Notes: a model not told the origin generated them from the letters alone. Shown: positions 263-22,740, counted from the first letter of the stretch. The stretch: 24,273 nucleotides of DNA from an uncultured Acidobacteriota bacterium (GCA_963809485.1 CAWEJX010000003.1:1-24273); one strand, 5' to 3'. A program made the numbers and translations.

Positions 263-296
263 AGTTTTATAAGTTTTATAGAGTTAACAGCCAGTT
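263..296. promoter_or_regulatory. Tandem direct repeat AGTTTTATA x2 plus roughly phased AGTT motifs; possible transcription-factor site upstream of the hdr operon
   Basis: AGTTTTATA at 263-271 and 272-280; AGTT recurs at 263, 272, 282 and 293 in an AT-rich stretch just upstream of a candidate promoter. Confidence 0.3.
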
Positions 297-297
297 C

Positions 298-325
298 TTC
301 ATATTCGTCATAAATATGGTATCAT
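298..325 (+). promoter_or_regulatory. Candidate sigma70 promoter (extended -10) for the hdrCBA-mvhD-metVF operon
   Basis: TG-g-TATCAT at 317-325; weak -35 TTCATA at 298-303; about 95 nt upstream of the hdrC ATG. Confidence 0.4.
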
Positions 326-419
326 TTTAAGGGATACGGTGCTGCCGGAAGAGGACGTTTTCAGTGTCTCGACCGGTTAAGGGATGGGCTAATTTGCCCT
401 GCCGGGAAATGGAGTAGCG

Positions 420-1825: not shown

Positions 1826-1827
1826 TC

Positions 1828-1908
1828 AGAGTTCCGAGTTTCCAGTTCCCAGTTTCCAGTTAAAAGGCCAAAGGCAAAACTGGGAACTGGAAACTGAGAA
1901 CTCGGAAC
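1828..1908. repeat. Intergenic palindrome of heptamer tandem units (AGTTYCC family), copy 1
   Basis: Left arm AGTTCCG-AGTTTCC-AGTTCCC-AGTTTCC-AGTT (1830-1861); right arm AAACT-GGGAACT-GGAAACT-GAGAACT-CGGAAC (1877-1908); 19-bp perfect complement 1837-1855/1877-1895. Confidence 0.9.
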
Positions 1909-1919
1909 GGAGGGGTAGT

Positions 1920-6419: not shown

Positions 6420-6422
6420 AAT

Positions 6423-6469
6423 TGGGAGTGCCGGTCTTTTTCCATACGCTGACGGGCCGGCGTTTCCCA
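6423..6469 (+). other. Non-periodic stem-loop between hdrA and mvhD
   Basis: TGGGA (6423-6427) pairs with TCCCA (6465-6469) and GCCGGTC (6430-6436) with GGCCGGC (6455-6461); ends just before the mvhD RBS. Confidence 0.45.
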
Positions 6470-6483
6470 TGAAGGAGATTGGG

Positions 6484-6954
6484 ATGGAAGCGACACAACA
6501 GTCGGTGCAGGAAAATGTTCAACCGGCCGGTTTCGAACCGGAAATTCTGGCTTTCTGCTGCGAGTTCTGAGCTTACAGCGCTGCGGACCTGGCAGGTTCG
6601 ATGAGGCTCAATTACCCGACATTCATCAAAATCATAAAGGTGCCCTGCACGGGAAGAGTGGACGTACTGACCCTCCTCAAGGCTTTTGAATCCGGCGTCG
6701 ACGGAGTCTATGTCGCGGGATGCATGGAGGGAGAGTGCCATTTCCTTAAGGGCAATCTCCGGGCCAGAAGGAGAGTGAACTACGCCAAAACGCTCCTCAA
6801 GGAAGTGGGGATAGAACCGGAGCGGCTGGAAATGTACAACCTGAGTGCCGCCCAGGGCCAGAAGTTCGCGGCCATCGCCAACGAAATGGCGGACAAGATC
6901 CGCGCCCTGGGCCCCAGCCCGGTAAAAAAAGCAAAGGACGCATTCAAGGCATGA
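6484..6954 (+). CDS. mvhD: MvhD-family [2Fe-2S] subunit, selenoprotein (Sec29 at TGA 6568-6570), 156 aa
   Basis: ATG 6484 follows AAGGAG (6472-6477) and is in frame with the 6601 ORF. It reads MEATQQ...FEPEILAFCCEF-TGA-AYSAADLAGSMRLNYP, matching the MvhD pattern FxCxxCxYxxADLAG with TGA at the Cys position. VPCTGRVD and AGCMEGECH follow. Confidence 0.92.
6568..6610 (+). promoter_or_regulatory. Bacterial SECIS-like hairpin
   Basis: Upper stem CGGACCT (6584-6590)/AGGTTCG (6594-6600) with a G-first loop GGC about 20 nt after the UGA; lower stem TGAGCTT (6568-6574)/AGGCTCA (6604-6610). Confidence 0.7.
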
Positions 6955-6957
6955 AAT

Positions 6958-7035
6958 AGAGTTCCCAGTTTCCAGTTCCCAGTTTCCAGTTGAACGATTC
7001 CAAACTGGGAACTGGAAACTCGGAACTGGAAACTC
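6958..7035. repeat. Intergenic palindrome of heptamer tandem units (AGTTYCC family), copy 2
   Basis: Left arm (AGTTCCC-AGTTTCC)x2-AGTT at 6960-6991; spacer GAACGATTCC; right arm AAACT-GGGAACT-GGAAACT-CGGAACT-GGAAACT at 7002-7034. Positions 6958-6991 match 1828-1861 at 33 of 34 nt. Confidence 0.9.
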
Positions 7036-7055
7036 GATGGATTTTGGAGGAAGCA

Positions 7056-7727
7056 ATGATAGTAGGAAACAGGAAGTCGCTGGAAGAGATCCTGCAAATG
7101 GTAAAACCCTATAAGAAGATTTTGCTTCTGGGCTGCAGAGAATGCATTACCGTCTGCGCGGCAGGAGGAGAGCGGGAAGTTGCGGTATTGGCTTCGGAAC
7201 TGAATATGTCCCGGGCGAAAGACGGCCAGGAAATCGATATCAAGGAATTCACCCTGGAACGCCAGTGTGATTTCGAGTATATCGATCAGATCAAGCCGTT
7301 TGTGGACGAATATGAGGCGATCGTTTCCATGGCGTGCGGGGCGGGAATCCAGTATACGGCCGAACGGTTTCCGAAAAAGATCGTTCTTCCCGCGATCAAC
7401 ACCACTTTTCTCGGCGTGACGCTGGAGCAGGGATTGTGGAGCGAACGGTGCCAGGGCTGCGGCGAGTGCATCCTGCATCTGACCGGGGGAGTGTGCCCGG
7501 TGGCGCGTTGCGCGAAGAGCCTTTTCAACGGTCCCTGCGGCGGATCCGCGAACGGCAAGTGCGAAGTGAACAAGGACACCAACTGCGCCTGGCAGCTGAT
7601 CATCGACCGGCTGAAAGAACTGGGCCAACTGGACCGCTACGAGGAAGTGATTCCTGTAAAAGACTGGTCGACATCGAGGGATGGCGGACCGCGCACTAGA
7701 GTTAGAGAGGATCTGAAGTTATCCTAG
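7056..7727 (+). CDS. metV: Methylene-THF reductase accessory Fe-S subunit MetV, 223 aa
   Basis: GCRECITVC, RQCD, ACGAG and the Cys-rich CQGCGEC...CPVARCAKSLFNGPCGG...KCEV...CAW; start set at ATG 7056 after GGAGG (7046-7050); adjacent to metF. Confidence 0.9.
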   Translation: MIVGNRKSLEEILQMVKPYKKILLLGCRECITVCAAGGEREVAVLASELNMSRAKDGQEIDIKEFTLERQCDFEYIDQIKPFVDEYEAIVSMACGAGIQYTAERFPKKIVLPAINTTFLGVTLEQGLWSERCQGCGECILHLTGGVCPVARCAKSLFNGPCGGSANGKCEVNKDTNCAWQLIIDRLKELGQLDRYEEVIPVKDWSTSRDGGPRTRVREDLKLS

Positions 7728-7743
7728 GAAGACAGCACTTATG

Positions 7744-7804
7744 GATTGACGATTGACGATGTGGCATGTTTTCAATCGTCAATCGTAAATCGTCAATCGT
7801 AAAT
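7744..7804. repeat. Intergenic palindrome of heptamer units (GATTGAC / AATCGTM family)
   Basis: GATTGAC-GATTGAC-GAT at 7744-7760; AATCGTC-AATCGTA-AATCGTC-AATCGTA at 7774-7801; 13-bp perfect complement 7744-7756/7772-7784. Confidence 0.85.
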
Positions 7805-7825
7805 TGTTAAGGGGGATTTGAGGCG

Positions 7826-8749
7826 GTGAAGACGAAATCGAATATTGAGCGTCTCTTGGAACAAGGGAAATTTGTGGTGACATCCGAATGCGGCCCGCCG
7901 AGAGGGGCGGATCCTGAAGCCATTCGCAAGAAAGGGAGTTTGCTCAAGGATGTGGTGGATGCGGTCAACGTCACCGACAATCAGACCTCCATCGTGAGGA
8001 TGAGTTCGCTCTCCTCTTGTCTGATTCTCAAGGAGATGGGATTTGACCCCATATGGCAGCTGGTATGCCGGGACCGCAACCGTATAGCGATTCAGAGCGA
8101 CATCCTGGGCGCGGCGGCGCTGGGAATCAACAATATCCTGTGCCTGTCGGGAGACCATCAAAGCTTCGGCGACAATCCCAAAGCAAAGAACGTATACGAC
8201 ATTGATTCCATTCAGCTGATCCAGACGGTCAAAATGCTGCGTGATGACGGCAAGTTTCTCGGCGGAGAGGAAGTTAAGGGGAAGCCTAACCTCTTCATCG
8301 GCGCCGCGGAGAATCCCTTTGGCGATCCCTTTGAAATCCGGGCCATGCGGCTGGGCAAGAAGGTGAAGTCGGGTTGTGACTTCATTCAGACCCAGGGCAT
8401 TTACAACCTCGAGAAGTTCGGCAAGTGGATGGAGATGGTGCGGGAGCGCGGGTTGCATGAAAAATGCGCGATTCTGGCAGGGGTGATTCCGTTGAAGTCC
8501 GCTGGCATGGCCAACCACATGAAAAAGAATGTGCCCGGCATGGATGTTCCGGATTCGCTGATTGAGCGGCTCAAGGGCGTGCCCAAGGAAAAGCAGGCGG
8601 AAGAAGGCATCAAAATCTGCGTGGAAATGATCCAGCAGATTAAAGAGATCCCCGGCGTCCGCGGCGTGCACATCATGGCCATCGAATGGGAGCAGAAGGT
8701 GGCCGAGATCGCGAAGGCCGCCGGCCTTCTGCCCAGGCCCCAGCTGTAA
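7826..8749 (+). CDS. metF: 5,10-methylenetetrahydrofolate reductase
   Basis: TSECGPPRG, NVTDN, CRDRNRIAIQSDILGA, LCLSGD, FIQTQ and GVHIMA MetF motifs; GTG start. Confidence 0.95.
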   Translation: MKTKSNIERLLEQGKFVVTSECGPPRGADPEAIRKKGSLLKDVVDAVNVTDNQTSIVRMSSLSSCLILKEMGFDPIWQLVCRDRNRIAIQSDILGAAALGINNILCLSGDHQSFGDNPKAKNVYDIDSIQLIQTVKMLRDDGKFLGGEEVKGKPNLFIGAAENPFGDPFEIRAMRLGKKVKSGCDFIQTQGIYNLEKFGKWMEMVRERGLHEKCAILAGVIPLKSAGMANHMKKNVPGMDVPDSLIERLKGVPKEKQAEEGIKICVEMIQQIKEIPGVRGVHIMAIEWEQKVAEIAKAAGLLPRPQL

Positions 8750-8765
8750 AAACCGATCAAATCCG

Positions 8766-8834
8766 AACCACGAAATACACGAAGAACACGAAATAATATT
8801 TCGTGTTTTTGGTGTATTTCGTGGTTGTTTTTTT
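8766..8834 (+). terminator. 30-bp near-perfect palindrome of 9-mer units (CACGAAATA) followed by T7; probable operon terminator and repeat element
   Basis: AACCACGAAATACACGAAGAACACGAAATA (8766-8795) pairs with TATTTCGTGTTTTTGGTGTATTTCGTGGTT (8797-8826), with one mismatch and one G-U pair; then GTTTTTTT (8827-8834). Confidence 0.75.
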
Positions 8835-9243: not shown

Positions 9244-9550
9244 TCCCGATAGAATTGGGAAATTTTATCAACTATCCCCTATAGCGTGCTAGAATTCAAA
9301 AATAGCATCAAATCTTTTGGATGGGGCTTTTATGCGCAAGCCATCGTTCCATGCATGGACCCGTCTTCTGCCGCCCTGCCGCGAGTGCCGACAGAGAGTG
9401 CGGGGAGGTTTCGCTCCGACAGTCCACAATGAACCCCCGTGGCCAACACGCGCCCGCACACGCACGGATATTTATTTTGGGGTAACAGGATAGGAAACTC
9501 CTGAATTCCGGTTGTTGCAGACTCGGTAAACACTGGCTGCTCAAAATGCC

Positions 9551-12500
9551 ATGAATTCTGCACGATGGAAGGATGTGGAGAGAATCTTCGACGCCGCAAT
9601 GGAACACGAACCGGCGCGGCGAGCGGAGTTCCTTGCCGAGGCCTGCGCGGGCGACGACTCGCTGCGGCGTGAAGTGGAGTCGCTGCTGGCGCAGGGCGAC
9701 AAGGGGGGCAGCTTCATCGAGGCCCCGGCAATGGAGAAGATTGCTCAGGATCTCGCTCCTGGTCCTGAACCGATGCGGGCCGTGGACGAGGCGTTGCGCA
9801 AACGCGCGCCGTGGTGGATGTATGCCGTAGCCGCTGTTTTCCTGATTTGTGCAGCGGTTCGCTATTGCGGATGGTATGTCCAACCGGAGGATCCAGGCAT
9901 TCAGTACGTGCCCCTTGCGGACAAGAACGGCAGGATTACGCGGATAGCGATCAGAACCGTGATGCCCGGTTCCGCGGCCGCACGAGCCGGTCTGCAACCG
10001 GGGGATGTTATATCGATTTCCAGCGCGGGCGGTTTCTTCCCATCTTTGTCTGAATGGGGTATGGGATGGTACACCCTGCAAACCGGCCGGACCTATCAAT
10101 TCGAGATCAGGCGAAAGGAGGAAATCAGGAGCATTTCGCTAACCCTGGGCCGCGATTGGTTGAGCAATTGGTGGCACAGTCCGCTAGGAAAAGGAAACCT
10201 CATAAGTGCTCTGATGTCACCCTTGCTATTAATAGTTGCATCAATCGTTGCCTTCGCCCGGCCTTACGACAGTTCCGCTCGATGGGGTGCGCTTCTCATG
10301 GCTGGTACTGCCATCATCGCTGCCTATAATCTCAATCCCTGGGGCTGGTTTAACACAATTCTCAGCTTCCCGCGCGTCATCGGCTGGTTGACCGCTGTCC
10401 TGCCGATTACGTGTCTTGCATGCAGCGGGTCGGTCCCCATCTCATTTGCTGCAGTTTTCCCCCGCTTGATTTGGCGTCAGCCCTGGATCTGGGCTTTGAT
10501 CTGGCTGCCGGCCGCGATCATCCTGCCCTCGCATATCATTTCGGATCATCCTCCCATTTATTCCTTTCCTTCCTGGATGCCCGGCTGGTACGACCTTTTG
10601 GTCCGAATTCTCCGTTTCATCGGCGCTCCTTTGGCAGGGTTAGTTTTGGCGCTGAATTATAGCCGGCTTCGAGATCTCAATGAAAGGCGGCGGGTTCGCA
10701 TTGCAGTATTGGGGCTTGTGATCACTTTGGCTGCATCCTTGCCCTCCACGCTGGTTGTCATAGTCAGCTACAAATACATTCGTTATCTCCAATGGTACGG
10801 AACTCTCAGGCCCCTTATATTCGCTCTGGTATGGGCATTTCCCATCTCTATAGCCTATGCCATCCTGCGCCACCGGCTCTTTGACATCCGCGTGATGATC
10901 CGGTTGGGAGTGAAGTACGCTGCCGCCCGCGGCGTGCTGCTCTCTCTCGTCCCCATCATTGGAGCCGTGTTTGTGGGCGATCTGTTCCTCCACCGCGCCC
11001 AGCCGCTCGCTGACATCATGAGCCGGCGCGTCTGGCTTTATGCGCTGCTGGCCGCCGGAGCATTCCTGTTGCATTATCGCCAACGGATGTGGCTCGATGC
11101 TCTCGACCGCCGCTTCTTCCGCGAGCATTACGACGCCCAGCGCATCCTGCGCGCCGTGGTCGACGAGATCCGCCAATCCCCCGACTTCGAGAAAGTCGCC
11201 CCGCGCGTGGTCTCGCAAGTCGAAAGCGCCCTCCATCCCGAGTTCGCAGCCCTCCTTATGCGTCCACCCGGAGAGCCCAAATATCGGGTTCTCTCTTCCA
11301 GCGGAAACGCCCCTCCTTCCATTCCGGCCGACAGCAAACTGATAGGAATGGCTCGCCTCCTCGGGAAGCCCCTCGAGGTCTCGCCCAGCCAGTCCGGATG
11401 GCTCCGCCAATTGCCCCAGCAGGAAATCCGGTTGTTGCAGCAGGCGCGCGTTGAATGGCTGTTCCCTGTCTCCCTGGTTGAAGGCCAGACCGAGGCTCTG
11501 CTCGTGATGGGACCCAAAAAGTCCGAAGAACCCTACTCCTGGGAAGACCAGGAACTATTGCAGGCAATCACAGGCAGCCTTGGCCTGCTGCTCGAACAAA
11601 CCTCGTCCAAAGGTTTCGAAGTGTGTCCGGAATGCGGAACCTGCTACGACACCGGGTCCGGCAAGTGCAGGAAAGAAGGAGCGGATCTCACACCGCTCTC
11701 CTTCCCGCGGTTACTGGCCCATCGCTATCGATTCGAAAAACGCCTGGGCGAGGGCGGCATGGGAATGGTATATGAGTCACTCGACACTCAGCTCGGACGC
11801 CATGTCGCCGTCAAACTCATCCGCCCCGACCTGATATCGAGCCCCGAAGCCGTCACGCGATTCAGGCGGGAAGCCAGGATAGCCGCAAGCCTTACCCACC
11901 CGAACGTCGTCACCGTTCATGATTTCGGCGTCGCCGACGACCAGCGCGCCTACCTGGTCATGGAATTGCTGCAAGGGTTGACCGTGCGGCAAGAACTGAA
12001 CCGCCGGGGACGCCTGCAGCCTTCCCGGGCCTCGGAGATCTTCAACGGCGTTTGCGCTGCCGTCGACGCCGCCCATCGCCTCCGGCTGTTGCACCGGGAC
12101 CTCAAGCCCGAAAACATCTTTCTCTCAAACTCTGAAACAACCGAGGCCGTAAAGATCCTCGATTTTGGAGTCGCGAAACCTCTTGCTGCAACGGATTCAA
12201 CCCGTTCAAATCCAACCGGACCCGGAATGCTGGTGGGCACGTTGAAATACATGTCGCCGGAGGAACTGCGCGGCGGCAAGCCGGCCGAAAGCTGGGATGT
12301 GTGGGCACTGTCAGTAGTGGCCTACGAAATGCTAACGGGCATCCATCCCTTTGACGGCTCCAGCTCACTGGACATAAGCAACCGGATATTGGCGGGACAA
12401 GTGACGCCTTTGCGGACCCATTTCCCTGAAGCCCCGCCAAGCTGGCAGCATTTTTTCGACCGGGCTCTCGCTGTCGAGGTTGAAGTGCGTCCGGCATCGG

Positions 12501-12574
12501 CGCTGGGACTTTGTTCCGAATTTGCAGACAGCTTGAAGAACCTCAGGACTGAGCCAGCTGGCATGGAGGTGTGA
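9551..12574 (+). CDS. Membrane Hanks-type Ser/Thr kinase 1: N-terminal helical domain, TM, PDZ, about 9 more TM helices, GAF-like region, Cys cluster, C-terminal kinase
   Basis: N-terminal RWKDVERIFDAA...FLAEACAGDDSLRREVESLL; PDZ-like VMPGSAAARAGLQPGDVI; PISIAYAILRHRLFDI; CPECGTC; kinase motifs GEGGMGMVY, VAVK, HRDLKPEN, DFG and YMSPE. Confidence 0.92.
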   Translation: MNSARWKDVERIFDAAMEHEPARRAEFLAEACAGDDSLRREVESLLAQGDKGGSFIEAPAMEKIAQDLAPGPEPMRAVDEALRKRAPWWMYAVAAVFLICAAVRYCGWYVQPEDPGIQYVPLADKNGRITRIAIRTVMPGSAAARAGLQPGDVISISSAGGFFPSLSEWGMGWYTLQTGRTYQFEIRRKEEIRSISLTLGRDWLSNWWHSPLGKGNLISALMSPLLLIVASIVAFARPYDSSARWGALLMAGTAIIAAYNLNPWGWFNTILSFPRVIGWLTAVLPITCLACSGSVPISFAAVFPRLIWRQPWIWALIWLPAAIILPSHIISDHPPIYSFPSWMPGWYDLLVRILRFIGAPLAGLVLALNYSRLRDLNERRRVRIAVLGLVITLAASLPSTLVVIVSYKYIRYLQWYGTLRPLIFALVWAFPISIAYAILRHRLFDIRVMIRLGVKYAAARGVLLSLVPIIGAVFVGDLFLHRAQPLADIMSRRVWLYALLAAGAFLLHYRQRMWLDALDRRFFREHYDAQRILRAVVDEIRQSPDFEKVAPRVVSQVESALHPEFAALLMRPPGEPKYRVLSSSGNAPPSIPADSKLIGMARLLGKPLEVSPSQSGWLRQLPQQEIRLLQQARVEWLFPVSLVEGQTEALLVMGPKKSEEPYSWEDQELLQAITGSLGLLLEQTSSKGFEVCPECGTCYDTGSGKCRKEGADLTPLSFPRLLAHRYRFEKRLGEGGMGMVYESLDTQLGRHVAVKLIRPDLISSPEAVTRFRREARIAASLTHPNVVTVHDFGVADDQRAYLVMELLQGLTVRQELNRRGRLQPSRASEIFNGVCAAVDAAHRLRLLHRDLKPENIFLSNSETTEAVKILDFGVAKPLAATDSTRSNPTGPGMLVGTLKYMSPEELRGGKPAESWDVWALSVVAYEMLTGIHPFDGSSSLDISNRILAGQVTPLRTHFPEAPPSWQHFFDRALAVEVEVRPASALGLCSEFADSLKNLRTEPAGMEV
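10834..12472 (+). repeat. Near-identical duplicated block (copy 1; copy 2 at 17116-18754)
   Basis: Constant offset of 6282 nt at the start and end of the block, with long identical runs visible by eye. Confidence 0.9.
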
Positions 12575-12576
12575 CC

Positions 12577-15500
12577 ATGAGATTGTATCGATCACAGTCT
12601 TTGCATGACGCTTCTGTCGGATTGCTCGTGATGTTAATGCTTGCCTGCCCTGTGTGCGCCCAAACCAGCCGGGGCACAGTTTCCGGGACGGTTTTGGACA
12701 GTTCGGGATTGGTCCTTTTTGACAGCAGCATAGAACTCACGAATATCGACACCAATGTCGTGAGAACAGCAACGACCAATAACGCCGGGATCTATCGTTT
12801 CGATGCCGTAGACCTGGGCAGGTACACAATCAAGATCAACATTCAGGGGTTCAAAGCATTCATTCAAGAGTCGTTTCCCGTGGAAGCCAACCGGGCCGTC
12901 ACCATTGATGCCACGCTGCAGCCTGGAGGAATGGACGCAATCGTGGAAGTAGTGGATACCGCCGGAACGCTGCTGGCAAAGGACGCTCCATTGCGAGGAG
13001 GCAGCATGGCCGGCAATGAGCTGGTCCGGCTGCCACTGGCCTGGTGGGAACCTTACTACGCGGGTTCGTTTCCGGGAGTCATCTGGCCGATCGGGAGCGT
13101 CAATTTCACGACCGGTACAGGCGTGTCGGTCAACGGTCAGCGACCTCGAGGCAACAACTGGATGCTGGACGGAACGGATAACAACGATGTTGGTTTTGCA
13201 GGCACAGCGCAGCTATTCCGGATCGTCGATGCGGTCCAGGAATCTTCCACTCAAACCGGTAACTTCGGCTCGGAATTCGGCAGGGCGGGAGGCGGTGTGT
13301 TCAACTTGATCACAAAATCCGGCACCAACCGGTACCACGGCACACTAAACTGGCGGCTGCTTTCTCAAGCCCTGGACTCAATGGAGAATACCCACAAGCT
13401 GGACACTCCACAGGGGCAGGAGCCCAAAAAGCCGGTCTATACAGAGAACATCTACGGCTTCACACTGGGCGGGCCCATCATCAAGGATAGGACCTTCTTT
13501 TTCGGCGGATTCCAGCAGGACAGCAACCGTTCAACAAACAGTTTTAAATCGGTTATCCCGACGGAAGACGCGGTGACAAGGCTCAAGGCTCTCTTTCCCG
13601 ACAATCCACGCCTCAATCTGTACCTCAACGCGATCGGGAATGACCGCGGGCTTGCAGACCCGATCGACATTATTTTGGGCCAGGATCCGGCAACCGGCGC
13701 AGAAAGGGGCGTGGTGCAGTTTGCATCCAAATATTTTTCGCTGCCGGGAGGAACCGATTGGCCCCAATGGATTGTCCGGTTAGACCATAATCTGTCGGAC
13801 ATCCATCGCCTTTCCTTCCGCCATATTTCGGAATCCTATACCAATGATGGAGGTTTCTGGTTCCCGGGCTACTACTCCAATTACAAAAGGCGCTATCAAA
13901 ACTTCCTTTTTGCCGACAACTACACCTTCAGTTCAACGCTGACGAATGAATTCCGTTTTTCCTATGGCCGCATAGGCTGGAATAACGGAATCAGCTCCAA
14001 TTCGGTCCCCGAAGCGTACACTCTGCCGTACTTCAAGATCGAAAACGTGGACGCTCCCGGCGTAGGGTACGTCATTCCGCAATTCCAATATGTCAACAAG
14101 TGGCTCTTTCAGGAAACGCAATCCAAGCTTTTGGGCCGCCACACTCTTCGATACGGTTTCGAGATTCTCAGCCAGCTTTCCAAGGAGCGTCCGCCATTCA
14201 ACGAACGGGGCGCTCTCAAATATCAGAATTCTACCAGCCCTCTCTATTCAGCATTTGCCAACTATCTTGATGACTACAGTGGCCCCTCGGGAGGCTCCGG
14301 CAGAAACTTCGGGAATGCCGTGATTTATCCAAATCAGTTCCGTCAATCCTATTTCCTACAGGACACATGGAAGGTGAACCCTTCGTTGACGCTCACTCTG
14401 GGACTTCGCTATGAGAACTACGGATCGCCCGCCAACGTCTTAGAGTATCCGGCCTTCACTGGTTTTGATCCGTCCAGGTTCCTGGAACCCAACAAGGTGA
14501 ATCCGGATAACAACAACCTTGGGCCGTCCTTGGGTTTCGCGTGGTCTCCGCAGTTCAAATCGGGACTGCTCGGAAAGCTCCTTGGGGAAGGAAAGACTGT
14601 ATGGCGCGGGGGCTTTCAGATCAGCTACGATGCTTACTTCGACTTCATGCTCGCCAACATCCAGGCGGATGCTCCGAACAGCGTGGCCACGGTCTTTGCC
14701 GGCGCAGGCACGAGCCGCGGAACAGGCAATTTTATTGCCACATTGCCCACCTCTCCCCGGCCTGTGACCCTCATGGACCCGCAGATAAGCGTTTTTGATC
14801 CGAACCTTCGCAATCCTTACACGGAACGCTGGTCCTTCGGCTTGCAGCGTCAGTTGCCGCAGGGCTTTATCCTGGATCTGTCGTACGTCGGCTCGGCAAG
14901 CCACAAGCTCTTCACAAGCGAAGACGTGAATCCCCGTCAACTCGATGGCATCCGGCTGCATCCGGATTTTGGGATCCGGCAGATACGCACAAACAGCGGC
15001 AATTCCAGCTACCACGCAATGCAGTTGCGCCTGGAACGCCGTTTTGCGAAAAGCTTCTTTCTCACTGGATCCTACACATGGAGCCGGATGATTGACAGCA
15101 CGAGTGAGATTTATCAATCCTGGAATACCTATGGGACAATGATAAATGTCGCCAATTTTCAGCCCGCAGTGACCTCCGTACCGGCAGGACAAGGGGGTAT
15201 GGGCCTCGACCGCGCGGTGAGCGATTACCATCGCAGTCACGTTTTCTCGGTGACCTATTCATGGGACCTGCCAGGGCCCAAGGGGGGACTGTTAGGCCAG
15301 TTGGGCGGAGGTTGGACGCTTGCAGGCATAACGGCCATCACGAGCGGCGCGCCTTACACGGTTCTGAACGGCGCCGATCGAAACAACGATGGGGTCCTGG
15401 CCGATCGGCCGGACATCGGGAATCCGAATGCGCCGCTGAACACTCGAGCTATCATTTCCAGCACATGCTCTACCGGATGGCTCAATCCTGATACGAACGG

Positions 15501-15831
15501 ATGCGTCACTCCCAATGATGTGCACTTCATCCAGGGAATAGGGCTTCCCAATAGCAGAACCCTCGGGAGAAACACGCTGACGGTGGAAGGCGGTGGTATG
15601 CAGACCTGGCTGTCTATTCTCAAGGCATTCGTGATCAAAGAAACGAGAAAGCTGGAGTTCGGAGCCGAGTTCATCAACCTGTTCAACAGTCCCGGCTATG
15701 CCTATATCCCGAGCGCCAGTGTTGTGGGTTCACCCGGGCCGTCAGGGGATATGCCTTCCCGCTTCCTGAATAAAGACTACACTATGAGCTACACCCGCAG
15801 AATCATTATGCGCGTGAAGCTTATTTTTTGA
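12577..15831 (+). CDS. TonB-dependent receptor-like outer-membrane protein with N-terminal carboxypeptidase-regulatory-like domain (Oar-like, Acidobacteria style)
   Basis: Signal peptide ending VCA-QTSRGTVSGTV; SVNGQR...LDGTDN; SEFGRAGGGVFNLITKSGTN; LQDTWKV...TLGLRYE; terminal Phe; GGAGGT RBS at 12565-12570 favours ATG 12577. Confidence 0.9.
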   Translation: MRLYRSQSLHDASVGLLVMLMLACPVCAQTSRGTVSGTVLDSSGLVLFDSSIELTNIDTNVVRTATTNNAGIYRFDAVDLGRYTIKINIQGFKAFIQESFPVEANRAVTIDATLQPGGMDAIVEVVDTAGTLLAKDAPLRGGSMAGNELVRLPLAWWEPYYAGSFPGVIWPIGSVNFTTGTGVSVNGQRPRGNNWMLDGTDNNDVGFAGTAQLFRIVDAVQESSTQTGNFGSEFGRAGGGVFNLITKSGTNRYHGTLNWRLLSQALDSMENTHKLDTPQGQEPKKPVYTENIYGFTLGGPIIKDRTFFFGGFQQDSNRSTNSFKSVIPTEDAVTRLKALFPDNPRLNLYLNAIGNDRGLADPIDIILGQDPATGAERGVVQFASKYFSLPGGTDWPQWIVRLDHNLSDIHRLSFRHISESYTNDGGFWFPGYYSNYKRRYQNFLFADNYTFSSTLTNEFRFSYGRIGWNNGISSNSVPEAYTLPYFKIENVDAPGVGYVIPQFQYVNKWLFQETQSKLLGRHTLRYGFEILSQLSKERPPFNERGALKYQNSTSPLYSAFANYLDDYSGPSGGSGRNFGNAVIYPNQFRQSYFLQDTWKVNPSLTLTLGLRYENYGSPANVLEYPAFTGFDPSRFLEPNKVNPDNNNLGPSLGFAWSPQFKSGLLGKLLGEGKTVWRGGFQISYDAYFDFMLANIQADAPNSVATVFAGAGTSRGTGNFIATLPTSPRPVTLMDPQISVFDPNLRNPYTERWSFGLQRQLPQGFILDLSYVGSASHKLFTSEDVNPRQLDGIRLHPDFGIRQIRTNSGNSSYHAMQLRLERRFAKSFFLTGSYTWSRMIDSTSEIYQSWNTYGTMINVANFQPAVTSVPAGQGGMGLDRAVSDYHRSHVFSVTYSWDLPGPKGGLLGQLGGGWTLAGITAITSGAPYTVLNGADRNNDGVLADRPDIGNPNAPLNTRAIISSTCSTGWLNPDTNGCVTPNDVHFIQGIGLPNSRTLGRNTLTVEGGGMQTWLSILKAFVIKETRKLEFGAEFINLFNSPGYAYIPSASVVGSPGPSGDMPSRFLNKDYTMSYTRRIIMRVKLIF

Positions 15832-15841
15832 TCGCAATCCT

Positions 15842-18800
15842 ATGAAGCCGGAGCGCTGGGAGCAAATCGAGAAGCTCTATAACGCGGCCATGGAACACGA
15901 ACCGGCGCGGCGAGCGGAGTTCCTTGCCGAAGCCTGCGCCGGCAATGCCTCGCTGCGCCGCGAGGTGGAGTCGCTGCTGGAGCAGGGCGACAAGGAAGGC
16001 AGCTTCATCGAAGTCCCGGCGATGGAGAAGGTCGCCCGGGATCTCGCTCCCGGTCCCGAACCGGTGCAGGGCGTGGACGAGGCGTTGCGCAGACGTGCTC
16101 CCTGGTGGATATATGCCCTCGGTGTTGTCTTCCTTGTTATCGCTGCCGTGCGCTATTACGCCTATCTCATGGCGCCTGAAGAACCGGGCACCGCGATTCA
16201 GCCAATTTTGGATAGGGGCGGCAAAGCTACGGGCCTACGGCTTGTATCGGTACAACCCAATTCTCCGGCGAAGAAAGCCGGGCTCAAGGCCGGGGATATC
16301 ATCCTGGACTCAAGCGGTTTTTGGAATATATCCAATCAGGACAAATCCGGTGTCCCTTACTGGCAAACAGGCCACGCCTACCGCATCGACGTCGAGCGCG
16401 AGGGTCAGAGGAAAACGGTTTTCCTGACGCTGGGCAGAAGTCATTCCCTCAATTGGGCTACCGCACACAGTTTTGTAGTTCATCATGGCCTCGCCCTCGT
16501 CCTGGTTTTAGCAATCATTGTCGTATGGATTAGGCCCTTTGATCTTACAGCAAGATGGGGTGCACTTCTTCTCTCGACCATTTCATTTGCCTGGCCCATT
16601 ATGGCTATACCAGGCGCGGGCATTACTCTCCAGAAATTTCCTCTGATGGTTCAGTGGATGACGGTGCTCATTCCCTGGATACTCAGAGGACTAACCGTGT
16701 ATGCGGCTTTAACCTTTGTATGTCTTTTTCCGCGCCGCCTGTTTCACCGGTTCTGGGTTTGGGGGCTGATCTGGATTCCAGCTTTGGTTGTGATGGCGCT
16801 CGTTGTTTTTGGTGATCTACCCCCCCTCTACTCGTTTCTCAAATGGTGGCCGGACTGGTATATCAACCTTGTCCTTGTTCTCCTCTTTCTTAGTTATTGC
16901 AGTATTGCAGCTGTAATAGTCGTGAACTATTGGCGCCTCAAGGAGATCAACGAGCGTCGGCGCGTCCGTATCGTTTTAGCAGGTCTTGCCATCGCCGGCA
17001 TTGGCGTACTGCCCGCCGCCACCGTAACATTTCTAGGCAGCATAGCGCCCAGGCTGGCTCAGTTTCATTACGGAGTGCCTGTTTATATACGATTTCCGCT
17101 TGCTTGGCTTGGTCTGGCATTTCCTATCTCGATAGCATATGCCATCCTGCGCCACCGGCTCTTTGACATCCGCGTGATGATCCGGCTGGGAGTGAAGTAC
17201 GCTGCCGCCCGCGGCGTGCTGCTCTCACTTGTTCCTGTCATTGGCGCCTTGTTCGTGGGCGATCTGTTCCTCCACCGCGCCCAGCCGCTCGCTGACATCA
17301 TGAGCCGGCGCGTCTGGCTTTATGCGCTGCTGGCCGCCGGAGCATTCCTGTTGCATTATCGCCAACGGATGTGGCTCGATGCTCTCGACCGCCGCTTCTT
17401 CCGCGAGCATTACGACGCCCAGCGTATCCTGCGTGCCGTAGTCGACGAGATCTGCCAATCCCCCGACTTCGAGAAAGTCGCCCCGCGCGTGGTCACGAAA
17501 GTCGAAAGCGCCCTCCATCCCGAGTTCGCAGCCCTTCTCATGCGTCCACCCGGAGAGCCCAAATATCGGGTTCTCTCTTCCAGCGGAAACGCCCCTCCCT
17601 CCATTCCGGCCGACAGCAAACTGATAGGGATGGCTCGCCTCCTCGGGAAGCCCCTCGAGGTCTCGCCCAGCCAGTCCGGCTGGCTCCGCCAATTGCCCCA
17701 GCAGGAAATCCGTCTGTTGCAGCAGGCGCGCGTTGAATGGCTGTTCCCTGTCTCCCTGTCTGAAGGCCAGACCGAGGCTCTGCTCGTGATGGGACCCAAA
17801 AAGTCCGAAGAGCCTTACTCCTGGGAAGACCAGGAACTATTGCAGGGGATCACCGGCAGTCTTGCCCTCCTGCTGGAACAAACTTCACTTAGAGGCTTCG
17901 AAGTGTGTCCGGAATGCGGAACCTGCTACGACACCGGATCCGGCAAGTGCCGCAAAGAAGGAGCGGATCTCACACCGCTCTCCTTCCCGCGGTTACTGGC
18001 CCATCGCTATCGATTCGAAAAACGCCTGGGCGAGGGCGGCATGGGAATGGTCTATGAGTCACTCGACACTCAGCTCGGACGCCATGTCGCCGTTAAACTC
18101 ATCCGGCCCGACCTGACATCGAGCACCGAAGCCGTCACGCGATTCAGGCGGGAAGCAAAGACGGTCGCAAGCTTTTCCCACCCGAACGTCGTCACCGTCT
18201 ATGATTTCGGCGTCGCCGACGACCAGCGCGCCTACCTAGTCATGGAACTGCTGCAAGGCTCGACTCTGCGGCAGGAATTGAACCGGCATGGCCACCTGCC
18301 GCCTTCTCGGGCCTCGGAGATCTTCAACGGCGTATGTGCTGCCGTCGACGCCGCCCATCGCCTCCGGCTGTTACACCGGGACCTCAAGCCTGAAAACATC
18401 TTTCTCTCAAACTCTGAAACAACCGAGATCGTGAAGATCCTCGATTTTGGAGTCGCGAAACCTCTTGCTGCAACGGATTCAACCCGTTCAAGTCAGACCG
18501 GAGCTGGAATACTGCTGGGCACCTTGAAATACATGTCGCCGGAGGAACTGCGCGGAGGCAAGCCGGCCGAAAGCTGGGATGTTTGGGCACTGGCAGTCGT
18601 GGCTTACGAAATGCTGACGGGCATCCATCCCTTTGACGGCTCCACATCACTGGACATAAGCAACCGGATATTGGCGAGACAAGTGATGCCTTTGCGGACC
18701 CATTTCCCTGAAGCCCCGCCAAGCTGGCAGAGCTTTTTTGACAGGGCTCTCGCCGCAAACGTCGATATACGGCCCGTGTCCGCACCCCAGCTTTATTCGG

Positions 18801-18844
18801 AATTCCGGGAAAGCGTCGAAAACATTACGATAGCACTCCAATAA
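15842..18844 (+). CDS. Membrane Hanks-type Ser/Thr kinase 2, paralogue of kinase 1
   Basis: Same architecture: MKPERWEQIEKLY..., PDZ-like VQPNSPAKKAGLKAGDII, multiple TM helices, CPECGTC, and intact kinase motifs. Confidence 0.92.
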   Translation: MKPERWEQIEKLYNAAMEHEPARRAEFLAEACAGNASLRREVESLLEQGDKEGSFIEVPAMEKVARDLAPGPEPVQGVDEALRRRAPWWIYALGVVFLVIAAVRYYAYLMAPEEPGTAIQPILDRGGKATGLRLVSVQPNSPAKKAGLKAGDIILDSSGFWNISNQDKSGVPYWQTGHAYRIDVEREGQRKTVFLTLGRSHSLNWATAHSFVVHHGLALVLVLAIIVVWIRPFDLTARWGALLLSTISFAWPIMAIPGAGITLQKFPLMVQWMTVLIPWILRGLTVYAALTFVCLFPRRLFHRFWVWGLIWIPALVVMALVVFGDLPPLYSFLKWWPDWYINLVLVLLFLSYCSIAAVIVVNYWRLKEINERRRVRIVLAGLAIAGIGVLPAATVTFLGSIAPRLAQFHYGVPVYIRFPLAWLGLAFPISIAYAILRHRLFDIRVMIRLGVKYAAARGVLLSLVPVIGALFVGDLFLHRAQPLADIMSRRVWLYALLAAGAFLLHYRQRMWLDALDRRFFREHYDAQRILRAVVDEICQSPDFEKVAPRVVTKVESALHPEFAALLMRPPGEPKYRVLSSSGNAPPSIPADSKLIGMARLLGKPLEVSPSQSGWLRQLPQQEIRLLQQARVEWLFPVSLSEGQTEALLVMGPKKSEEPYSWEDQELLQGITGSLALLLEQTSLRGFEVCPECGTCYDTGSGKCRKEGADLTPLSFPRLLAHRYRFEKRLGEGGMGMVYESLDTQLGRHVAVKLIRPDLTSSTEAVTRFRREAKTVASFSHPNVVTVYDFGVADDQRAYLVMELLQGSTLRQELNRHGHLPPSRASEIFNGVCAAVDAAHRLRLLHRDLKPENIFLSNSETTEIVKILDFGVAKPLAATDSTRSSQTGAGILLGTLKYMSPEELRGGKPAESWDVWALAVVAYEMLTGIHPFDGSTSLDISNRILARQVMPLRTHFPEAPPSWQSFFDRALAANVDIRPVSAPQLYSEFRESVENITIALQ
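17116..18754 (+). repeat. Near-identical duplicated block (copy 2 of 10834-12472)
   Basis: Same sequence as copy 1 with scattered substitutions at offset 6282. Confidence 0.9.
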
Positions 18845-18856
18845 TGGGGTGGGCTT

Positions 18857-19175
18857 ATGAGAGCGAACCCGTCAAATACTGGGTTTCGTGTCCCTCTCGG
18901 ATTGCTCCGCGATAGTGCTTCTTTCTCCCGTTGCGCACGCACAGACCAGCCGCGGCACGGTATCCGGCACAGTGTCGGACATCTCAGGCGCGGTCATTTT
19001 TGGCATCGCCATCGAGCTCTCCAATGTCAACACCGGCATCGTGAGAACCACCGTGACCAATCCTTCGAAGATATACCGGCTCCATGCAGTAGACCTTGGC
19101 ACATACAGGATAAAGATCAGCATGCAGGGCCTTAAGGGATTGCCTTTACTGTCGTTACCATCGAATAGCCAGTGC
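18857..19175 (+). pseudogene. Truncated, frameshifted 5' fragment of a second TonB-dependent receptor
   Basis: AQTSRGTVSGTVSDISG...IYRLHAVDLGTYRIKISMQGLK aligns with the N-terminus of the 12577 receptor. ATG 18857 is one base out of frame (extra C near 18908). Similarity is lost by about 19175. Confidence 0.8.
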
Positions 19176-19181
19176 AGCAAG

Positions 19182-19274
19182 TGCTTCTTTGACCGGGCCC
19201 TTGCCCTCAATATTGAGTCGCTTCCCGCATCCCCGCTCGAACTCTATGTCAAATTGCGGGCCAGCGCGGGATAA
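19182..19274 (+). pseudogene. 3' remnant of a third kinase paralogue
   Basis: CFFDRALALNIESLPASPLELYVKLRASAG* aligns without gaps to the C-termini of kinase 1 (HFFDRALAVEVEVRPASALGL) and kinase 2 (SFFDRALAANVDIRPVSAPQLY), with 14 of 30 identities to each by hand count. Confidence 0.8.
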
Positions 19275-19382
19275 ATATCAGGGTTGGTCAGCGCTTTTTC
19301 GGCCTGTGTCAGCGTTCTGTGATCCTGGAGCTGTCAAACTCTGTGAGTCCCCTAACAGAGCTGGGGATCACCTATTTAATTA

Positions 19383-19961
19383 TCAGGATTTTGCGCTTCC
19401 CTTGATTTCCCGCATCAAAAAGGCTCTGGCCAGCCTCCAGTCGCGCATAACGCTCTGAGGGGAGATCTTCAAAACATCCGCAGTCTCTTCCACGCTCAAC
19501 CCGCCGAAGAAGCGCAATTCGATGACCTGTGCCTTTCGGGGATCCACTTTCGATAAAACCTTCAACGCCTCATCAATAGAGACCAGTTCATGAGCCCGCT
19601 CTGAGGAAATTTCGGGAACGTCGTCGAGGTTGACTCGAGGCGAGCGGGCGCCGCGCTTGACGGAGGTGCGCGCCCGGGCTGCGTCTACCAAAATCCGCCG
19701 CATCATCTGTGCCGAGATGGCGAAAAAATGGGCCCGGTCATGCCAATCCACCCGGGTCACATCCACCAGTCGCATATAGGCCTCATGAACCAGGGCCGTG
19801 GTCTGGAGTGTCTGGCCCGGGCGTTCGCGCCGCATATACCCCCTGGCCATGCGGCGAAGCTCTGCGTAGACCAGGGGCGTGAGCTGATCCAGCGCGGATT
19901 GATCTCCGCCGGCCCAAGCCCGCAGCAGACCCGTGATTTCGGCTGACGGCAGGGGATGCAT
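19383..19961 (-). CDS. ECF sigma factor of the kinase-associated ECF43/TIGR02999 type
   Basis: ITGLLRAWAGGD...VYAELRRMA...TLQTTALVHEAYMRL, DRAHFFAI, ELRFFGGLSVEETA...RDWRLARAFL; GGAG RBS at 19971-19968. Confidence 0.93.
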   Translation of the reverse strand: MHPLPSAEITGLLRAWAGGDQSALDQLTPLVYAELRRMARGYMRRERPGQTLQTTALVHEAYMRLVDVTRVDWHDRAHFFAISAQMMRRILVDAARARTSVKRGARSPRVNLDDVPEISSERAHELVSIDEALKVLSKVDPRKAQVIELRFFGGLSVEETADVLKISPQSVMRDWRLARAFLMREIKGSAKS

Positions 19962-19981
19962 ATGCTGCTCCAGGTCAGAAG

Positions 19982-19987
19982 ATTATA
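19982..19987 (-). promoter_or_regulatory. Candidate -10 box (TATAAT) for the ECF sigma gene
   Basis: Perfect TATAAT on the minus strand about 20 nt upstream of the start codon; no convincing -35. Confidence 0.35.
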
Positions 19988-20079
19988 TACCCCAAAGATA
20001 ATACAAAAAACATCTGCAGGCCGTTGTAGTTCCGTCCCGCCACTTCCGCTTACCGAAGCAGAGGCAGCGGGAGGGAGCA

Positions 20080-20694
20080 ATGAAGATCAACAAGATGATA
20101 GCAATGGCGGTATTGGCAGGAACCTTCGCCCGTGCGGAGGATAAAATGGGAATCGCGGAGCGCGGGGTGACAATCTGTGTTGAAACCCGGGCAACACCGG
20201 AAGCCGGTCTCGCTCAGGTAATCGCCGAAAAAATGTTCTTAAATATAGGCATAAAAACTATTTGGAAGGATGGGCGTGCTTGTCCGGCAACCGCCGACGG
20301 CATGGTTCACATCACCCTGGTAACGAAAAGAAGCAAAACTCACTATCGTCCAGGCGTGCTTGCTTTTGCCCTTCCCTTCGAAGGAGTCCATATCCATGTG
20401 TTTGTCGACCGCCTGCGGAAGATGGTTGATCCCAATAATATGCCATCCTTTCTGGCGCATGTCCTGGCTCATGAAATCACTCACATTCTGCAGGGAACCA
20501 ACGGGCACTCCGAGGAGGGTGTCATGAAGGCAAACTGGAGCGCGAAGGACCTGGTGGATATGAGGTTCAAGCCCCTCGACTTTACAGTGCAGGATGTTTC
20601 CATGATTCTCTCAGGCCTGGAGGCATGGGCATTGCGCTCAGCAAGACCAAATCCACAGATGGCTCTTCAACAAAATTCCCAAGACGGCAATTGA
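20080..20694 (+). CDS. Secreted hypothetical protein with a zinc-metallopeptidase-like motif
   Basis: Signal peptide (MKINKMIAMAVLAGTFARA); LAHEITHILQGTNGH...GVM (HExxH, third His, possible Met-turn); GGGAG RBS. Confidence 0.75.
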   Translation: MKINKMIAMAVLAGTFARAEDKMGIAERGVTICVETRATPEAGLAQVIAEKMFLNIGIKTIWKDGRACPATADGMVHITLVTKRSKTHYRPGVLAFALPFEGVHIHVFVDRLRKMVDPNNMPSFLAHVLAHEITHILQGTNGHSEEGVMKANWSAKDLVDMRFKPLDFTVQDVSMILSGLEAWALRSARPNPQMALQQNSQDGN

Positions 20695-20970
20695 TAGCGG
20701 TCCGTGTCCCAATCCGCTCGTGGATGAAAACTGGTCACCGCGGAAGCACCGCGATCTAGGCGATGCGTGGAGAACATAAATCGTATTGGTCCCTGTATAC
20801 TCCGCTCCCCAATCAAGCTATTGCGTCCCCGACAACAAAAATGCAGCCCATAATGAGAGATCTCATGCAGATCCCGAATTCGGCATCCAGGCATTTCGCA
20901 GCTGTCTTCGCTTTTTTTTATTGCCTGATCCTCAAGTTGTATTAGTCTTGTTGCCCGGGATGGAGGTTCG

Positions 20971-22740
20971 ATGGCGGCTCTGCTGAGACTTTTCCGATTC
21001 CTGCAAAACTCCACAGGCGCGCTCGTTGTCTCATTCATCCTTCTTATGGCCTCTACGGGCCTTGGGCTGGTTCAGCCCCGGCTGATCGAGTACGCCATCG
21101 ATAACGGCATCAAGCCCGGAATTGTTTCCGCCGTCGTCTGGGGCGCATCGGGCATCATCCTCACGGCCCTGCTTGCGGCTGCCCTCAACATGGCTTCCGG
21201 CTACACGCTGATCAAGTCCTCTCAATCCATGGGCTACGAAATGCGCAACGCCCTGTATCGCAAGGTCATGAGCTTCTCTTTCGAGAACCTGGACCGCTGG
21301 CGAACCGGGGAGTTGATGGTGCGCCTGAATTCCGATGTCAATACCATCCGTATGTTTGTACGCATGGGTGTCTTCAGCATCGTGCAGTCCGTCATCATGA
21401 TCATCGGGGCTGTCATCGCCATGTACCTGACAGATCCGGGACTGGCGCATATCATGGCAGCCTTTATGCCCCTGACCCTGGTCCTGTTCTTCGCCGTGGC
21501 CGCCCTCATACGCCCCCTTTTCATGAAAACCAGGACTGCTCTCGATGAGTTGAACAATACCCTCCAGGAAAACCTCGCAGGCGCCAAGATCGTCCGCGCC
21601 TTCGCGCGCCAGGCTCAGGAACAGGAGAAGTTCGGCCTCCGCAACAGGAATTTCTTCGATATCAGCCTGAACGTAGGCTATAAGCTGTCCCTGTTCTTCC
21701 CCTTATTTTTTCTGATTGCACAGCTCGCAACGCTTATTGTCCTGTGGTCGGGCGGGACGACGATCATCGAGGATGCAGTCGGCGGCGCGGCCGGGAACCT
21801 TACGCTGGGCAAGCTGGTCGCTTTCAACAACTATGCCACCATGGCCATGTTCCCCCTCCTGATGTTGGGGATGGTGCTGAATTTCATCAGCATGGCGATG
21901 GCATCGGCTGTCCGTCTGGACGGCTTGTTCCGTGAAAAGCCGAGCGTCGAGGAAAGACAGGGCGCACGCAGCCTTTCCTCCCTGAAAGGAAAGATTGAAT
22001 TCCGGAACGTATCTTTCCGCTACGGAGAGGGAGAAAAAGCCCTTAGCAATATCAACCTCCTCATAAAGCCCGGAGAGAAGCTGGGAATCATCGGCACGAC
22101 GGGCGCCGGCAAATCCAGCCTGGTTAGTTTGATACCCCGTTTCTATGATCCCGAGGAAGGAAGCGTCCTGCTCGACGATGTGGACGTGAGGGATTTGACT
22201 TTCGATACCCTGCGCACACGGGTGGCGATGGTCCTGCAGGAGACGGTGCTTTTCAGCGGAACGATACGGGAAAACCTGGCGTTCAGTGCACCCCAGGCAA
22301 GCCGGTTCGAACTGGAAAGAGCCGCCATGATCGCCTGTGCCACGGAAATTATCCAGGAAAAGCCCGAGGGATGGGAGGCATCCGTAGGAGAACGCGGCGC
22401 CGGGCTTTCCGGAGGCCAGCGGCAGCGCGTCGCGATCGCCCGGGCCATAGCAGCCAAGCCGGATATAATCATACTGGACGACGTTACCTCATCCCTGGAT
22501 ATCACCACCGAACAAAGAATTGTGGAAGGGCTTTATCGCGAATTTGGGGACAGGACTGCCATCATCATCAGCCAGAAGATCACAACGATTTGCTTCGCCG
22601 ACCGGATCATAGTGATGGAAGACGGCCGAATCGTGGCAACGGGGACTCATGAGGAGCTCCTGCAATCCGATCGGACTTACCGGACAATTTTTGAGACCCA
22701 GACAGGTTCTGCGGTTGTACAAGGAGGGATCCCCGCATGA
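20971..22740 (+). CDS. ABC exporter half-transporter (TMD+NBD), degenerate-site subunit of a heterodimer (TM287-like)
   Basis: TM domain; Walker A GTTGAGKS; LSGGQ signature; Walker B ends LDD instead of LDE; switch ISQK has Q instead of H; GGAGG RBS. Confidence 0.92.
   Translation: MAALLRLFRFLQNSTGALVVSFILLMASTGLGLVQPRLIEYAIDNGIKPGIVSAVVWGASGIILTALLAAALNMASGYTLIKSSQSMGYEMRNALYRKVMSFSFENLDRWRTGELMVRLNSDVNTIRMFVRMGVFSIVQSVIMIIGAVIAMYLTDPGLAHIMAAFMPLTLVLFFAVAALIRPLFMKTRTALDELNNTLQENLAGAKIVRAFARQAQEQEKFGLRNRNFFDISLNVGYKLSLFFPLFFLIAQLATLIVLWSGGTTIIEDAVGGAAGNLTLGKLVAFNNYATMAMFPLLMLGMVLNFISMAMASAVRLDGLFREKPSVEERQGARSLSSLKGKIEFRNVSFRYGEGEKALSNINLLIKPGEKLGIIGTTGAGKSSLVSLIPRFYDPEEGSVLLDDVDVRDLTFDTLRTRVAMVLQETVLFSGTIRENLAFSAPQASRFELERAAMIACATEIIQEKPEGWEASVGERGAGLSGGQRQRVAIARAIAAKPDIIILDDVTSSLDITTEQRIVEGLYREFGDRTAIIISQKITTICFADRIIVMEDGRIVATGTHEELLQSDRTYRTIFETQTGSAVVQGGIPA

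Follow-up and report, generated by a model that had tools for sequence, protein, structure and literature searches.

ECF43 sigma factors, a group within the sigma factors of extracytoplasmic function (ECF), are activated by phosphorylation, and EcfP and EcfK serve as their reference systems (PMC8999054, PMC7826278). The available parts of these reports describe ECF43 sigma factors as intrinsically inactive without phosphorylation, name the second threonine of a short motif as the phosphorylated residue (PMC8999054) and give QTTA as the consensus of this motif (PMC13147305). The corresponding Hanks-type kinases are PknT in Vibrio parahaemolyticus (PMC8999054) and PknS in Xanthomonas citri (PMC13147305, PDB code 9EED). 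PknS, as presented in the accessible sections of that paper, has an 83-residue N-terminal extension directly ahead of the kinase domain, which is followed by one transmembrane (TM) helix and periplasmic TPRs; the extension is conserved, predicted to be helical, invisible in the crystal and may have a role, and the construct PknS(1-364), which includes it, was active in vitro (PMC13147305). Here, we describe a locus with a likewise QTTA-containing ECF43 sigma factor and nearby Hanks-type kinases on a 24,273-nt stretch of DNA (CAWEJX010000003.1:1-24273; the window), which is the whole of contig C3 in the 6.0-Mb genome of an uncultured Acidobacteriota bacterium (GCA_963809485.1; 95.7% complete). 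On balance, we find it somewhat probable that its two PDZ-headed kinases with ten predicted TM helices, K1 and K2, recruit the sigma factor via a PknS-type N-terminal tag and phosphorylate its residue T55, with the adjacent TonB-dependent transporter (TBDT) T1 being an output or an optional importer. The system is best read as a variant of the ECF43 phospho-switch in which the sensor is ComP-like and a portable tag docks the sigma factor.

K1, T1, K2 and a remnant follow each other on the plus strand, with T1 starting 2 nt past the K1 stop codon and K2 starting 10 nt past the T1 stop codon (Table 1). The sigma factor gene is located on the minus strand, convergent with this array and with its stop codon 539 nt from the K2 end, and is therefore not co-transcribed with it. 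All of these genes, including a TIGR02999 sigma factor with QTTA, had been proposed in a first-pass annotation made from the sequence alone and were confirmed at their places. The statement that the array abuts the sigma factor gene needs to be qualified, as both are neighbours but are convergently oriented with a repeat of about 100 bp between them.

Table 1. Features of the kinase array and the adjoining sigma factor locus; positions are those of the window.
Feature	Position	Strand	Size or basis
Conserved region upstream of the array, likely promoter/leader	9283..9550	+	DNA identity 66% over 312 nt with L137
K1: helical tag, TM1, PDZ, nine further TM helices, GAF-like domain, CxxCxxC knuckle, Hanks kinase	9551..12574	+	1007 aa
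N-terminal tag of K1, proposed sigma-docking module	9551..9754	+	Homology to PknS N-terminal extension
ComP-like sensor predicted for K1, with ten TM helices and a periplasmic PDZ domain between TM1 and TM2	9800..11128	+	Model and positive-inside bias
T1, Oar-subclass TBDT: signal peptide, CarboxypepD_reg extension, barrel	12577..15831	+	1084 aa
K2, paralogue of K1	15842..18844	+	1000 aa
5' part left of a second receptor gene, T2, with a frameshift close to the start	18857..19165	+	PF13620 E 5e-11
3' remnant of a third kinase, K3	19180..19255	+	blastp E 6e-5 to K2 C-terminus
Dispersed repeat of about 100 bp between array and sigma factor gene	19277..19385		Matches on at least 11 contigs
ECF43-type sigma factor with QTTA	19383..19961	-	192 aa; TIGR02999 230.5 bits (cut-off 126.15)
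Weak match to conserved element ahead of genes divergent from ECF43 sigma factors	20041..20054	+	Score 6.7
Secreted HExxH protein divergent from sigma factor, likely direct target	20080..20694	+	No Pfam match

Besides TIGR02999, the sigma factor matched PF07638 with 191 bits. In its region 2.2, the motif Q53-T54-T55-A56 takes the place of DxxD, and by analogy with the described systems T55 is the expected phospho-acceptor. No anti-sigma factor was detected by Pfam and NCBIfam scans of seven proteins (K1, T1, K2, the remnant, the sigma factor, the product of the divergent gene and a response regulator) or by eye among the other open reading frames (ORFs) of the window. For K1 and K2, Pfam scans revealed Pkinase, PDZ and, weakly, GAF matches. 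An AlphaFold2 model of K1 based on 106 sequences (mean predicted local distance difference test score, pLDDT, 86.2; predicted template modelling score 0.58) showed three N-terminal helices, a low-confidence linker, TM1, the PDZ domain, nine TM helices, a GAF-like domain, a cysteine knuckle and the kinase domain, in this order. The kinase domain (residues 726-982) is located behind ten predicted TM helices and matches the fold of PknB (Foldseek E 2e-18); the Hanks motifs GxGGMG, VAxK, HRDxKxxN, DFG and SPE are all intact. K1 does not have the layout of PknS, namely an N-terminal kinase, a single TM helix and a periplasmic C-terminal sensor. Unlike in PknS, the kinase domains of K1 and K2 are C-terminal, separated from the tag by about 650 residues with ten predicted TM helices and placed behind PDZ and GAF domains, and two kinases face one convergent sigma factor.

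The tag comprises approximately the first 65 residues of K1 and K2, with three confident helices at residues 3-51, and belongs to no Pfam family according to the Pfam scans. Searching the PDB with a profile of 39 tags returned one match, residues 6-67 of the PknS construct 9EED (E 8.2e-08), the next hit having an E value of 0.17. This homology to the helical extension of PknS adds to the likeness between both systems, which also share a QTTA-containing ECF43-type sigma factor and a nearby Hanks kinase; an anti-sigma factor was not seen here within the scans and inspection described above. The tag profile matched 65,439 protein clusters, and the long tag-bearing proteins scanned, 29 of 150 listed, were kinases without exception; a search of the ESM Atlas with the tag gave only unnamed clusters at 0.90.

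Gene order links the tag to the sigma factor. A TIGR02999-like sigma factor gene was found directly upstream of 27 of the 36 tagged kinases (28 with L138, in which the end of the sigma factor gene is visible) and of none of 73 untagged kinases with at least 250 nt of flanking DNA. These counts refer to pooled loci anchored by a TM1-PDZ profile, from which near-duplicates were removed (136 reduced to 120 units); left out for lack of the anchor were L051 and L096, in which tag and sigma factor are present, and L075 and L099, in which the 5' part is missing. Viewed from the sigma factor, 62 of 65 loci had a tag no more than 5 kb away, 55 of them directly downstream; the 65 loci, many of which share genomes, are 60 regions from 114 rows, chosen in favour of longer contigs, plus five. 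In the genome of the window, the tag occurs at five of 35 kinase loci and there are four distinct ECF43 sigma factors; three kinase-sigma pairs are adjacent, and the partners left over are the window sigma factor and K1/K2, the only unpaired ones. Across 71 sigma-tag-kinase triples, the distance between sigma factors correlated with that between tags (r 0.53; partial 0.49) and with that between kinase domains (r 0.34; partial 0.24). Kinase domains of the family and of canonical ECF43 kinases are 37% identical and their sigma factors 56%. The linkage and the homology of the N-terminal helices to the PknS extension suggest that the kinases probably phosphorylate the sigma factor, as the first-pass annotation had assumed. 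The tag would keep the sigma factor at the membrane near the kinase domain, and phospho-T55 would provide the missing negative charge for binding of RNA polymerase, as in EcfP and EcfK.

The strict co-occurrence of tag and sigma factor fits docking as well as clamping: the tag might be an anti-sigma-like clamp or an autoinhibitory element which holds sigma factor or kinase inactive until the sensor fires. Its appearance as a small helical bundle on a flexible linker in the K1 model, unresolved in the PknS crystal, would be in agreement with such a role. We nevertheless regard a clamp as rather improbable. It is not needed, because ECF43 sigma factors are, as far as described, inactive unless phosphorylated (PMC8999054); the extension-bearing PknS construct is reported to be active in the accessible text (PMC13147305), and each of the 29 long proteins scanned that bear the tag is a kinase.

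The kinases P0364, P0376 and P0373 contain ten, three and two matched tag stretches, respectively, and in P0380 a C-terminal piece of a sigma factor precedes the tag. At L274:9565-10558 and L277:5092-5875, the sigma factor gene is followed by a short ORF consisting of the tag only, in L274 beside transposase-like genes; these ORFs are probably truncated kinases.

The predicted sensor of K1 resembles that of ComP of Bacillus, for which the available part of a modelling study predicts the same ten TM helices with both ends inside and a PDZ domain between TM1 and TM2, and proposes peptide sensing (PMC9620489). The distribution of Lys and Arg over 106 family sequences fits an N-in/C-in topology with the PDZ domain, which is of the DegP/RseP type, outside; tag and kinase are therefore both predicted to be cytoplasmic. 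The similarity to ComP is one of predicted topology, and no ComP model was matched in Pfam and NCBIfam scans. In contrast to ComP, the output consists of a Ser/Thr kinase and a sigma factor instead of HisKA/HATPase domains and a response regulator, the host is a diderm, and no gene for a pheromone was identified. A single-sequence fold of the sensor region reached a mean pLDDT of 46 and was not used; comparison of this region with plasmids gave no match. Of 7999 candidates, 1070 belong to the family of PDZ/multi-TM/GAF kinases at E<=1e-20, and kinase homologues and GTDB loci are nearly all from Acidobacteriota. In L009, L037, L040, L094 and L149, the same PDZ-TM-GAF sensor occurs with the kinase at the N-terminus and with neither tag nor sigma factor.

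K1 and K2 share 35% identity in the PDZ domain and TM2-8 and 89-97% from the last helices through the kinase domain, which suggests diverging inputs with one output. As has been proposed for ComP, the ligand of the PDZ/TM part may be a peptide or the exposed C-terminus of a protein, and the fast-diverging sensors would feed near-identical cytoplasmic outputs, with several inputs converging on one sigma factor. A sigma-independent PDZ-TM-GAF kinase may have acquired the tag by grafting from a canonical ECF43 kinase; the proteins P0046, P0059 and P0080, composed of tag, kinase, sensor and second kinase, are plausible intermediates of such grafting.

T1 matches PF13620 (E 6e-16) and PF25183 (OMP_b-brl_4; E 1e-125), has 1325 homologues at E<=1e-50 and, by sequence, no relative in the PDB. 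A match to the STN domain PF07660 was absent at E<=0.01. The C-terminal end of T1, considered as a PDZ ligand, resembles what we take to be an ordinary barrel terminus. In its domain make-up, not by direct sequence comparison, T1 is similar to Oar of Myxococcus xanthus, which secretes PopC and represents, in the available text, a TBDT subclass without STN domain whose N-terminal PF13620 extension is distinct from the STN signalling domain (PMC6434023). The FecI-FecR-FecA system likewise combines a TBDT, an inner-membrane protein and an ECF sigma factor in one cluster, and its accessible description holds the STN signalling domain to be required for regulation by FecA (PMC11658791). The window differs in having no STN domain, no FecR-like anti-sigma match in the cluster genes scanned and a sigma factor of another group, and T1 is not a conserved partner.

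The first-pass annotation had suggested that the receptor imports or relays a ligand to the sensor. A relay in the manner of FecA is not supported, given the missing STN match and the distribution of the receptor: receptor profiles, which among TBDT classes detect the Oar type only, placed such a receptor directly downstream of three of 25 tagged family kinases (K1, K2 and that of L137) and of none of 68 untagged ones. In a quick tree of 60 rows, these three kinases form one supported clade with kinases of a 23,566-bp and a 24,868-bp contig, and the kin around this clade have a sigma factor and no receptor. T1 orthologues (E<=1e-200) were found in three of 136 other genomes of the class and five of 400 of the phylum, with only two to five candidates scored per genome, and the three of the class do not overlap with the 20 other class genomes in which the kinase occurs. 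Upstream of the T1 orthologues with visible DNA, in four other genomes, there was no kinase; in one of these genomes, two distant matches to the family lie on other contigs. At L243:360-7542, a T1 orthologue lies downstream of an ECF-like sigma factor gene and an anti-sigma-like gene bearing Cys and His residues, as judged by eye, which would be another kind of regulator for this receptor subfamily.

T1 might still feed the kinases without an STN domain, by importing a peptide or by presenting its N-terminal extension or C-terminus to the PDZ/TM sensor, whereupon the kinase would phosphorylate the sigma factor and replace the anti-sigma factor of FecIRA; we consider this unlikely. The spacing of K1, T1 and K2 by only 2 and 10 nt speaks for it, as do the duplication of the unit and the intact orthologous K2-T2 pair in L137. 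T1 homologues also appear together with family kinases on two contigs (23,566 and 13,750 bp; 0.6 expected), assigned by the equal bp size of entries. Unrelated Oar receptors lie behind a family kinase in L099 and behind canonical tagged kinases in L295 and L304. Signalling from a TonB-dependent receptor to a kinase has, moreover, a precedent in PahS/PahP/PahK/PahR of Cycloclasticus, where, in the available text, the receptor gene is clustered with an inner-membrane kinase and the signal passes without an anti-sigma factor (PMC10570129). Against such feeding stand, in addition to the missing STN match, the single clade and the separate genomes described above, the identities of the partners, receptors being 71-85% alike where sensors are 35% alike, and the gene numbers: the 23,566-bp contig appears to hold three kinases and one T1 homologue, the 24,868-bp contig two kinases and no T1 homologue among the matches listed. 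The wider proposal of a peptide passing through an Oar-type transporter to a diverging array of ComP-like PDZ/ten-TM kinases and on to a tag-docked ECF43 sigma factor, with neither anti-sigma factor nor STN domain and with tag grafting able to convert any membrane kinase, is in our view equally doubtful. If a receptor did act upstream of the kinase, cell-surface signalling would take a new route here.

Oar receptors were found near ten of 48 fully flanked sigma factor loci, compared to two of 45 controls and an own-genome background of 6.8%, which may be counted in favour of receptor-fed signalling. Six of 11 receptors near ECF43 sigma factors are divergent from the sigma factor, in a slot usually held by a gene for a secreted protein. 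Oar receptors are thus a recurrent companion of ECF43 loci and most simply explained as outputs. T1 is likely a lineage-specific output or an optional importer and not a signal relay. In L144:2281-12298, two tagged kinases in tandem are accompanied by a divergent Oar-type receptor, with no sigma factor within the locus; here, in another lineage, a receptor neighbour again goes along with loss of the sigma factor gene next to the kinase.

The remnant downstream of K2 is composite. The region 18844-19165 is 82% identical over 327 nt of DNA to the intact receptor gene behind the K2 orthologue in the metagenome locus L137 and 65% identical to T1; in alignment, the T1 start coincides with the ATG at 18857, the receptor-like frame corresponds to the ORF 18888-19274, and the likeness to receptors stops near 19165. 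The following segment is 68-71% identical in DNA to kinase 3' ends (K1 end 68%). Hence, the start of T2 was fused by deletion to the end of K3, and the array once held at least three kinases. The first-pass annotation had assigned the whole remnant to a receptor, which is correct for its 5' part only. Likewise, a receptor does follow each kinase, intact as T1 and as a T2 remnant, but these represent one duplicated unit, not two independent observations. The same T2/K3 junction is present on the overlapping contig C6 of the same assembly, which is thus not an independent copy, and L137 shows the mirror image of this event, with the 5' relic of a K1 gene joined to the 3' relic of a T1 gene. The ancestral array presumably contained at least K1-T1-K2-T2-K3, as far as the order of relics indicates; the kinase-receptor unit would have been duplicated in one clade and partly deleted again, and the sigma factor would have come to lie convergently. 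A three-way alignment of the region upstream of K1 with L134 and L137 gave a mean column identity of 73%. An origin of this region by inversion or from a relic sigma factor gene was rejected, as no sigma hidden Markov model matched it in six frames, in the window or in L134 and L137, and it contains no copy of the junction repeat at 19277-19385.

These rearrangements could also be read as a decaying duplication beside an unrelated sigma factor: K1 and K2 would have lost their own sigma factor, the convergent one would belong to another module, and receptor and sigma factor would have no functional tie to the kinases. Consistent with this are the convergent orientation, the junction repeat, the deletions in the window and in L137, the existence of tagged kinases without sigma factor and the homologues which the divergent HExxH gene has beside canonical kinases. 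We rate decay as having little probability, for K1, T1, K2 and the sigma factor are all intact and, in the 95.7% complete genome, no tagged kinase or ECF43 sigma factor besides these was found to lack a partner. Furthermore, the 23,566-bp contig, a JGI entry, appears to hold, besides its three family kinases and the closest T1 homologue (74%), a sigma factor 80% identical to that of the window; this grouping is deduced from the equal bp size of the entries.

If K1 and K2 activate the sigma factor as we propose, it would transcribe the divergent gene for the secreted HExxH protein and similar envelope genes. The neighbours of this protein in the Atlas are unnamed, the nearest named cluster being 14% Peptidase_M10, and a homologue is likewise divergent from a sigma factor in L271/L275. 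Comparison of loci revealed a TTCCCGC.TTA-like element which points into the slot divergent from ECF43 sigma factors and was replicated in new loci, with scores of at least 9 in 28 of 67, compared to five of 67 on the other strand and four of 67 after shuffling. It also precedes divergent receptors in L293 (16.0), L335 (12.1) and L277 (13.7). The match in the window is not significant alone, as about 0.2% of window positions reach a score of 6. A genome-wide scan with the element gave 292 sites above 13 bits, none of them upstream of K1, and was unusable as a regulon; scans for sigma-70 promoters and terminators remained at shuffle level.

Several points weigh against tag-mediated recruitment of the sigma factor with T1 as its output. 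In a tree of 72 rows, the tag changes four times and the sigma factor three times, which leaves two independent pairs (sign test p 1), and gene adjacency alone may produce the correlation between sigma factors and tags. Eight tagged kinases are without an adjacent sigma factor (K1, K2, those of L134, L137, L121 and L151, and two in L144), and the window sigma factor could, because of its convergent position, serve another kinase. The kinase-sigma link rests on sequence comparison, and tag-sigma binding and phosphorylation are predictions. Upstream of K1, the plus strand carries no copy of the element (best score 5.5; long matrix -3.5), which leaves T1 as a candidate target of the sigma factor. 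Finally, the tight coupling of T1 to K1 and its retention in relatives (L137 and the 23,566- and 13,750-bp contigs) would not be explained if T1 were simply a passenger.

The 2026 paper on PknS leaves the 83-residue extension without a function in its available text (PMC13147305), and our literature search, largely of open-access texts with supplements outside its scope, found no report that describes the K1/K2 architecture or assigns the extension a role in docking. The kinase family represents a natural domain-shuffling experiment, in which the extension is placed at the far end of a ten-helix protein and the sigma factor gene accompanies it, and the tag family would allow the way in which ECF43 kinases recognise their sigma factor to be tested directly. 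PDZ/multi-TM/GAF would be an added type of sensor for sigma factor phosphorylation, and the comparison of loci yields a candidate promoter element.

Contigs C17 and C6 overlap the ends of the window (8-5287 and 17230-24273, respectively) at 98.7-98.8% identity with many indels. The second copy of the sigma factor on C6 is therefore assembly redundancy and not a paralogue. The C6 copy of K2 is frameshifted, has clustered substitutions and is probably a K1/K2 mosaic; frameshifts in the assembly may be errors. Among the sequencing runs, the matches listed included no RNA run, DNA runs shared at most 0.13 of words, and no contig spanning the remnant or sigma junction was found among the pieces examined. 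At 22737-24184, an ABC-transporter-like ORF is split in the window and unsplit in its C6 copy (643 aa), while its upstream partner is intact in the window and split in C6. At 6959-7035 and 8766-8826, there are a second short repeat, with three matches on C19, and a 61-bp inverted repeat. The ORFs at 420-8749 resemble what we take to be genes of heterodisulfide reductase, MvhD and MetV/MetF type; the same left flank precedes a family kinase in L134. In L056, two complete sigma-kinase operons of the family are oriented towards one another, and each of them has a divergent gene of its own for a secreted protein.

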